Shown here piece after piece: positions 29,142-29,690 of a stretch of DNA of 64,000 nt. The DNA comes from Eledone cirrhosa (Eukaryota): the NCBI GenBank assembly GCA_964016885.1, contig OZ024759.1:7316001-7380000 (forward strand). Reading direction: 5' to 3'. The notes under the pieces are model-generated. The model searched no databases, was not told where the DNA came from, and saw only the letters and a list, made by a program, of their open reading frames with translations. Within the stretch, counting starts at the first letter, position 1. The number at the start of each line of letters is the position of its first letter. The translations under genes and the position numbers were made by a program.

Positions 29142-29690
29142 AATATAAGTATGTACACGAACATACATGTATGTAAACAGACGTACAGTAGTATGTATAT
29201 ATATATATATATACATACATGCACATACATGTACGTATGGATTCACCGAACATTTATTATAATGCTCGGTGTGTTTTTTGTAAACAAACATCCCATATTA
29301 AGCCGTAGTGTCCAGCAACCACCGTTGCTCGTTTGTTCAACACTGACAAAGGAATGCTGTATGCAAATTGGGCTACTCAGCCGTTAATATGCATAAGGTA
29401 AGTATATAGGTTCAACAATCTGGCAGGAAGGTATATCTTGCTGACGATAGCTAATAAGCTTGAAACTAGTACAGCGTTCCTTTGTCAGTGTTGAACAAAC
29501 GAGCAACGATGGTTGCTAGACACTACGGCTTAATACGGGATGTTTGTTTACAAACACACCGAGCATTATAATAAATGTTCGGTGAATCCATACGTACATA
29601 TATATGTGTGTGCATGTATGTATATATATATATATACATACTACTGTACGTCTGTATACATATATGTATGTACGTGTACATACTTATATT
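29142..29690. mobile_element. Fold-back element (family G), ~220-bp diverged inverted arms
   Basis: 29142-29361 vs 29470-29690 are reverse complements with scattered mismatches; hammerhead in the spacer. Confidence 0.8.
29438..29474 (+). ncRNA. Minimal hammerhead ribozyme (family G)
   Basis: TTG-CTGACGA-T-AGCT-aata-AGCT-T-GAAA-CTAG-TA-CAG; palindromic ACTAGT; predicted GUA cleavage after 29471. Confidence 0.78.

Follow-up and report, generated by a model that had tools for sequence, protein, structure and literature searches.

Insertions of Penelope-like elements (PLEs) are described as carrying inverted 5'-truncated copies, one-sided tails and target duplications (PMC3846280, PMC8557442). 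The hammerhead ribozymes of these elements are reported to require a dimer and to show low activity in vitro, and paired hammerhead motifs on opposite strands, 100-700 bases apart, are described in the same account (PMC4209133). A PLE protein studied in vitro cuts and extends both strands of its target, uses two internal start sites on the RNA and prefers A/T-rich DNA; it mainly uses uncut RNA, cleavage being unnecessary, and according to the main text of that study no RNA-seq reads of the anole PLE begin or end at the cut (PMC11167929). The role of the PLE hammerhead in cells is called unclear, and in vivo evidence is called lacking, in those parts of the PLE literature that discuss it. A genomic footprint at the cut would bear directly on this role, as it did for R2.

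The locus described here lies in a 64-kb window, the whole stretch of DNA that was analysed, half of which is masked as tandem repeat and which contains LINE-type frames and a 200-base run of N (13839-14038) representing an assembly gap. The insert comprises 603 bases (29087-29689): first a 53-base one-sided tail, then a 5'-truncated copy in inverted orientation, and last a forward copy of a multi-copy element (Table 1). Both of its outer ends are element 3' ends, and the two copies meet head to head. The left arm is the reverse complement of the right arm, with 209 of 228 alignment columns identical, 8 substitutions (6 transitions and 2 transversions) and 11 gap columns, an inverted repeat far beyond chance. 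A sequence-only reading of this DNA had delimited the structure as 29142-29690; the structure itself stands, while its outer limits were off by two bases.

Table 1. Coordinates, within the 64-kb window, of the features of the insert and of its predicted hammerhead.
Feature	Position	Strand	Basis
Putative target-site duplication, left copy, 14 bases, A/T only	29073-29086	+	Exact word search of the window
Tail: 53-base 3' extension of the inverted copy; weak stem-loop predicted	29087-29139	-	Inside the duplication, outside the arm
Left arm, inverted 5'-truncated copy of the element's 3' part	29140-29361	-	Match to 29470-29692
Two-base microhomology TA at the head-to-head junction, common to both copies	29360-29361	.	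Family contigs and arm
Forward 5'-truncated copy of a multi-copy non-coding element, including the whole hammerhead	29360-29689	+	Family contigs and reads
Predicted type I hammerhead with extended helix I	29410-29497	+	Motif scan and folds
Right arm, 3' part of the forward copy	29470-29692	+	Arm alignment
Predicted self-cleavage site after GUA	29471/29472	+	Hammerhead consensus and helix I pairing
TA/TG-rich 3' segment in both arms, past the family divergence point near 29605	29600-29692	+	Loose ends behind 29605 (X1, X21)
Putative target-site duplication, right copy, followed by a TA microsatellite	29690-29703	+	Exact word search

The 14-base A/T word that flanks the insert occurs exactly twice on the forward strand of the 64-kb window, at 29073 and 29690, and not at all on the reverse strand, and only 2 of the 329 A/T-only tracts of at least 14 bases in the window contain it. 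This pair can be read as the target duplication produced by the insertion. Since about 90 TA/TG-rich bases lie in both arms inside the duplication, they were probably carried on the template and do not represent target flank; the 14-mers of the terminal part of this segment (29630-29692) were found nowhere else in the window. The tail, for which a hairpin of -8.0 kcal/mol is predicted and no second copy was found in the 64-kb window, is probably element RNA sequence too, as indicated by its position inside the duplication. Next to the insertion site, another element forms a partial tandem: a 110-base direct repeat (28439-28548 and 28965-29074, 526 bases apart) that ends at the left target duplication and in which no hammerhead was seen.

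An origin of the left arm by fold-back, either of DNA (cDNA snap-back or a replication template switch copying the right arm and its flank) or in library preparation or assembly, would fit the presence in both arms of the TA/TG-rich segment lying past the point where family reads diverge, and the failure of the four aligned sequencing runs to include the junction; self-priming has also been proposed for palindromic PLE junctions (PMC3846280). However, the arms differ by 8 substitutions, and the left side carries 53 bases absent from the right flank, followed by a direct repeat of 14 bases that occurs in the window at these two ends only. As fold-back makes neither substitutions, nor a one-sided extension, nor a duplication, this origin is considered most improbable. 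The same three features support the view that the structure is real and old, which the sequence-only reading had argued from the arm mismatches. The match of the insert to the published PLE layout makes it very likely that the left arm is a cDNA copy of element RNA rather than an artefact; this part of the earlier interpretation thus survives, apart from the claim that the RNA was self-cleaved, which is considered below.

The traits of endonuclease-positive (EN+) PLEs present in the insert are the head-to-head inverted 5'-truncated copy, the tail at one end and the duplication in an A/T-rich target. A hammerhead motif, which in EN+ PLEs lies in the terminal repeat (pLTR), is present in the insert, whose sequence may correspond to such a repeat. 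The single frame with telomerase-like RT and GIY-YIG endonuclease that characterizes autonomous EN+ PLEs is not found in the insert, whose one frame of at least 70 codons has no Pfam match; GIY-YIG endonuclease was matched by none of the 74 window frames searched with Pfam. Lacking an RT/GIY-YIG frame, the insert is classed as a non-autonomous PLE-type copy rather than an autonomous PLE. Elsewhere in the window, two LINE frames that are long and open, 30624-33854 (+) and 37035-40313 (-), face each other, are 96.8% alike and encode an endonuclease, an RT and a PHD finger located after the RT; older relatives are found at about 27000-28420 and 53200-55000. A repeat of about 320 bases with a tRNA-like head, probably a SINE, is present at 14890-15175, 22450-22773, 49786-50104, 50196-50513 and 52316-52633, with Rfam tRNA matches at 49793 and 50449.

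The predicted hammerhead core (29441-29471) conforms to the consensus CUGANGA...GAAA...UH, with CUGACGA at 29441-29447, GAAA at 29462-29465 and GUA at 29469-29471, the UH being 29470-29471. Helix II (29449-29460) comprises four pairs, helix III (29465-29470) is a palindrome predicted to form only by pairing in a dimer, and helix I is predicted by folding to run through an internal loop to about 29410/29497. The proximal part of helix I has three pairs in this copy and five with the family letters at 29436-29437, which account for more than 99% of depth. Helix II has U29448 opposite U29461 at its base and lacks the G10.1-C11.1 pair, called highly conserved in hammerheads (PMC4209133). The constrained hammerhead fold of this copy (-21.1 kcal/mol) is 6.3 kcal/mol less stable than its free fold (-27.4 kcal/mol). 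The motif scan identified this as the sole hammerhead motif of the family in the 64-kb window. Rfam returned no hammerhead match at the gathering score across the window, and none among the 83 matches with E<=10 in 29000-29800; these low-score matches were dismissed as hairpin or TA-repeat matches below the gathering score. Located 5' of the hammerhead, at 29394-29405, is the sequence AG/GTAAGT, which resembles a splice donor and in which about one third of family depth has a different letter at 29399.

The family was surveyed by aligning a 271-base reference covering a single arm (29340-29610) to four of the 23 sequencing runs listed. This yielded 5,931 (X1) and 6,355 (X2) contigs from one sample and 30,152 RAD reads (X21) whose species label is the same as that of the X1/X2 sample, all with many variant letters; 9 contigs from another organism also aligned. 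The family continues 5' of 29360, loose ends before this position being present in 62 and 71 contigs, and frays near 29605, where loose ends follow in X1 and X21. The letters of the helix I pair 29438/29474 vary in family reads. Thousands of RAD reads align to 29439-29499 only, with different flanks, which suggests that this motif is kept between diverged subfamilies and could be under selection. The junction at this locus itself has a depth of 0 (29340-29349) in the four runs aligned. Database pattern scans for the family returned 3 viral and 11 metagenome loci, which were rejected as unrelated matches to the short pattern alone, and two stricter pattern scans returned no loci.

The left arm terminates in GCTGTA at 29361 and pairs with the sequence from 29470. 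The arm alignment confirms this observation of the sequence-only reading, and the motif scan, placing the cut at 29471/29472, bears out the claim that the arm ends within 2 nt of it. The last two bases of the arm are, however, shared between the copies: family contigs align from 29360 onward and differ 5' of it, and the arm also covers TA 29360-29361, which leaves 29470, 29471 and exactly 29472 as possible positions for the arm end. The two overlapping bases are those directly 5' of the cut and are absent from a cleaved RNA; they are what the cDNA 3' ends of two uncut RNAs would anneal by. Unlike the inverted repeat, the agreement of an end with the cut does not go far beyond chance: its probability is 2-5% for this junction alone, 13-26% when the 12 junction ends counted initially in the window are considered, and 0.32-0.47 across all 31 ends examined, of which 1 lies at a cut against 0.38-0.63 expected. 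The end at the cut is more probably coincidental than a proof of in vivo cleavage, and this one junction does not amount to the genomic evidence of in vivo hammerhead activity that the earlier interpretation had seen in it.

The pile-up of 5' ends at the cleavage site expected in that interpretation was not observed. Of the 29 other 5' ends (15 in the window and 14 at read joints), none is found within 2 bases of a predicted cut, giving a 95% upper bound of about 10%, and their positions relative to the predicted cuts span -136 to +108. The 15 defined 5' ends of other hammerhead mini-elements in the window range from -136 to +31, with the nearest at +5. Four other tail-outward head-to-head inversions retain an intact core, and each of their eight inner ends is 39-136 bases upstream of the cut, which indicates that the templates of these four inversions were uncut. 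Among the family-read joints listed (15 of 16), 7 change strand, some of which may be library chimeras or tail-to-tail joints, and 0 of their 14 ends are within 2 bases of 29472. Loose ends at 29470-29472 were absent from the rows listed (23 of 440), and RAD reads with such an end number fewer than 675 of 30,152 if the unlisted rows are smaller than the listed ones. The power of this read test is limited, with 368 and 379 contigs being partly aligned and the RAD reads sampling few loci. The counts leave aside the palindromes 18075-18315 and 25053-25162 (hammerhead core not found), a match at 22772 (the tail of a SINE-like copy, 78% alike), the copy at 21636 and the single copies at 35054 and 47705 (5' ends undefined), microsatellite matches, and 8 of the 15 joints listed, which keep the same strand.

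Several signals that resembled pile-ups were dismissed. A start at 29470 is seen in two X6 contigs, but with a third terminating at 29499 and variants at 29500 the pattern fits a branch of the assembly graph; the 7% step in depth at 29472-29474 (X1, X2) has the same confound, with variants at 29500 and 29502. The pile at 29366 in X21 coincides with the 4-base site of a candidate restriction enzyme, and the step at 29475-29482 in the same run is compatible with reads ending from a second such site near 29613. One inversion joint in the RAD reads (6 reads, 3 starts) begins at 29360, which is the first base of the forward copy; this could be a preferred break or an effect of the reference edge.

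Other hammerhead mini-elements of the window share the head-to-head layout. A second family, which includes head-to-head inversions, is located at 8700-9140, 19183-19440, 22350-23160, 34825-34993 and 50525-50741, one pair being split by a SINE-like insert. Three of its copies have a short 3' end near +47 from the cut and several a longer one near +130, as if two fixed start sites were used. The hammerhead of a third family (21427-21700 and 25487-25690) has a genuine helix III of 3 pairs and likewise carries U-U where helix II starts at the core; of the pairs in this family, one is arranged tail to tail and one head to head, and three 5' ends lie at the core start (-38 to -43). Three more hammerhead-like motifs with different sequences are located at 25763-25990, within an inverted structure, at 35054 (+) and at 47705 (-). 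A tandem of period 591 with a terminal inverted segment and a distant copy (9540-9739 and 17055-18315), more than 99% alike, has a PLE-like layout, and no hammerhead core was found in it by the motif scan.

Arrest of the short cDNA at an RT pause on the folded, uncut hammerhead, once helix I had been unwound, would place its end by structure and not by cleavage. Folding predictions place the end of the extended helix I at the cut site, and other ends occur near the core, at -38, -39, -39 and -43 in the window and at -34, -42, -48 and -50 among the read joints. These ends, however, coincide with the 5' edge of the core or lie upstream of it, not at the cut, and with such small numbers the clustering may be only apparent. 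A pause is considered a quite improbable cause.

Copying of the left cDNA from the 3' product of self-cleavage, with run-off at C29472, while the forward cDNA was made from uncut, multimeric or circular RNA and the TA overlap arose by chance, is a more serious alternative. Assignment of TA to the forward copy puts the arm end exactly at 29472. By a rough model resting on assumptions, such an end has a likelihood 44-103 times higher with a cut RNA than with random truncation; when overlap rates are assumed along with priors of 0.3-0.7 for any use of cut RNAs as templates, the model gives 0.10-0.43 for an origin of this junction from cut RNA. The motif is kept in the family, as evidenced by the letters of the 5-pair helix I (more than 99% of depth), the variation at 29438/29474 and the reads restricted to 29439-29499, and the palindromic helix III permits the dimeric fold described for such motifs (PMC4209133). 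Of the four substitutions in 29470-29600, two are of CpG type, and the others, at 29509 and 29518, coincide with variants present in the family at a frequency of about 20%; the arm differences at these two common variants (crude P=0.016) suggest two RNA molecules from different donors or later conversion, and are compatible with cut as well as uncut templates. A precedent comes from R2 elements, in which ribozyme cut sites shape genomic 5' junctions (PMC3774820). Against this origin stand the lack of any further end at a cut among the 29 counted and among the loose-end rows listed, the overlap bases TA, which would be missing from cut RNA, the U-U closing helix II together with the less stable hammerhead fold, and the anole RNA-seq data and dispensability of cleavage (PMC11167929). 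Taken together, we consider it unlikely that the RNA of the left arm was cleaved.

The explanation we favour, with some confidence though well short of certainty, is a non-autonomous PLE-type copy generated by two-ended target-primed insertion from templates that were both uncut, the end at the cut site having arisen by chance. The copy would have been inserted by target-primed reverse transcription on the two strands of an A/T-rich target after a staggered cut, a PLE protein acting in trans to prime one cDNA per target strand from start sites about 53 bases apart on the element RNA. The forward cDNA would run through the hammerhead to 29360, and the other would stop about 110 bases earlier; their 3' ends could then anneal via the self-complementary TA and be repaired. 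Both templates would be uncut RNA, and the short cDNA would end beside the cut by chance, as one among scattered 5' truncations. The anatomy of the insert is observed directly; which protein acted, in what order the events followed and whether the RNA was cut are what we infer in this scheme. It is supported by the target duplication unique in the window, by neighbouring hammerhead mini-elements with the same layout and one-sided extension, by the forward copy spanning an intact hammerhead, the location of TA 5' of the cut and the 0 of 29 other ends within 2 bases of a cut, and by the published PLE layout (PMC3846280, PMC8557442, PMC4209133) and the in vitro behaviour of a PLE protein (PMC11167929). 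Speaking against two uncut templates are the compatibility of the arm end with the exact cut, the junction unseen in the aligned runs (depth 0 at 29340-29349) and the variants at 29509 and 29518, which the scheme explains only via different donor RNAs or later conversion. A further point against it is that no autonomous PLE frame was found among the 74 window frames searched, so that the link to a PLE protein is one of anatomy only.

If, as appears doubtful, a single two-ended insertion did join two cDNAs here, one made from cleaved RNA and ending exactly at C29472, the other made from the uncut or circular RNA of a different donor copy, ribozyme-cut transcripts would be real, minor templates of Penelope-type retrotransposition in an animal germ line. 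A spike of a few percent of 5' ends at the cut would then be a read-out, obtainable from genome sequences of thousands of families, of in vivo hammerhead activity. The family is abundant, and the end at the cut is a reasonable starting point for a cheap genome-wide count of 5' ends, not evidence of in vivo cleavage. A search of freely accessible main texts found no published description of PLE inversion junctions at the hammerhead cut.

Overall, the locus represents a real, old and ordinary PLE-type insertion, a clean case of a two-ended event whose target duplication, a feature usually hidden in pure TA repeats, is unusually easy to read. It shares with insertions of EN+ PLEs (Penelope/Poseidon, Neptune, Naiad and Pen2a of Adineta), as described in two reports (PMC3846280, PMC8557442), the head-to-head inverted 5'-truncated copy, the extension at one end, the target duplication, the A/T-rich target and the hammerhead near the 3' end. 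It differs from them in the length of the extension (53 bases, against 30-40 reported) and, for Adineta, of the duplication (14 bases, against 8-10) (PMC3846280, PMC8557442), as well as in having neither a reading frame nor a linked full-length parent and in the arm that ends at the predicted cut. The motif is similar to the PLE hammerheads described in PMC4209133 in its core and in the very short palindromic helix III requiring a dimer, and the family is similar in its mostly single, dispersed motifs and high variation within the genome; here, by contrast, helix II has 4 pairs with U-U in place of G10.1-C11.1, helix I is predicted to run via an internal loop and there is no Rfam hammerhead match.

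As proposed for the insert, Poseidon of Anolis carolinensis is reported to combine two-strand cutting and extension, an A/T-rich target and two start sites downstream of the hammerhead that result in a one-sided tail (PMC11167929). Its hammerhead, however, overlaps the start of a long frame (PMC11167929), while here no frame follows and the putative start sites are located about 220 and 270 bases past the cut. Animal non-LTR retrozymes are likewise non-coding, carry a type I hammerhead and are thought to be mobilised by PLE proteins (PMC7229834; bioRxiv 10.64898/2026.07.22.740005), but consist of tandem units each with its own hammerhead (PMC7229834), whereas this locus has one hammerhead and an inverted copy, and the 64-kb window one hammerhead of the family. 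R2 elements with HDV-like ribozymes provide the precedent for reading a ribozyme cut from genomic 5' junctions; they belong to another element class with another ribozyme, and there the link extends across many copies and was tested in vitro, compared with the one junction described here (PMC3774820).
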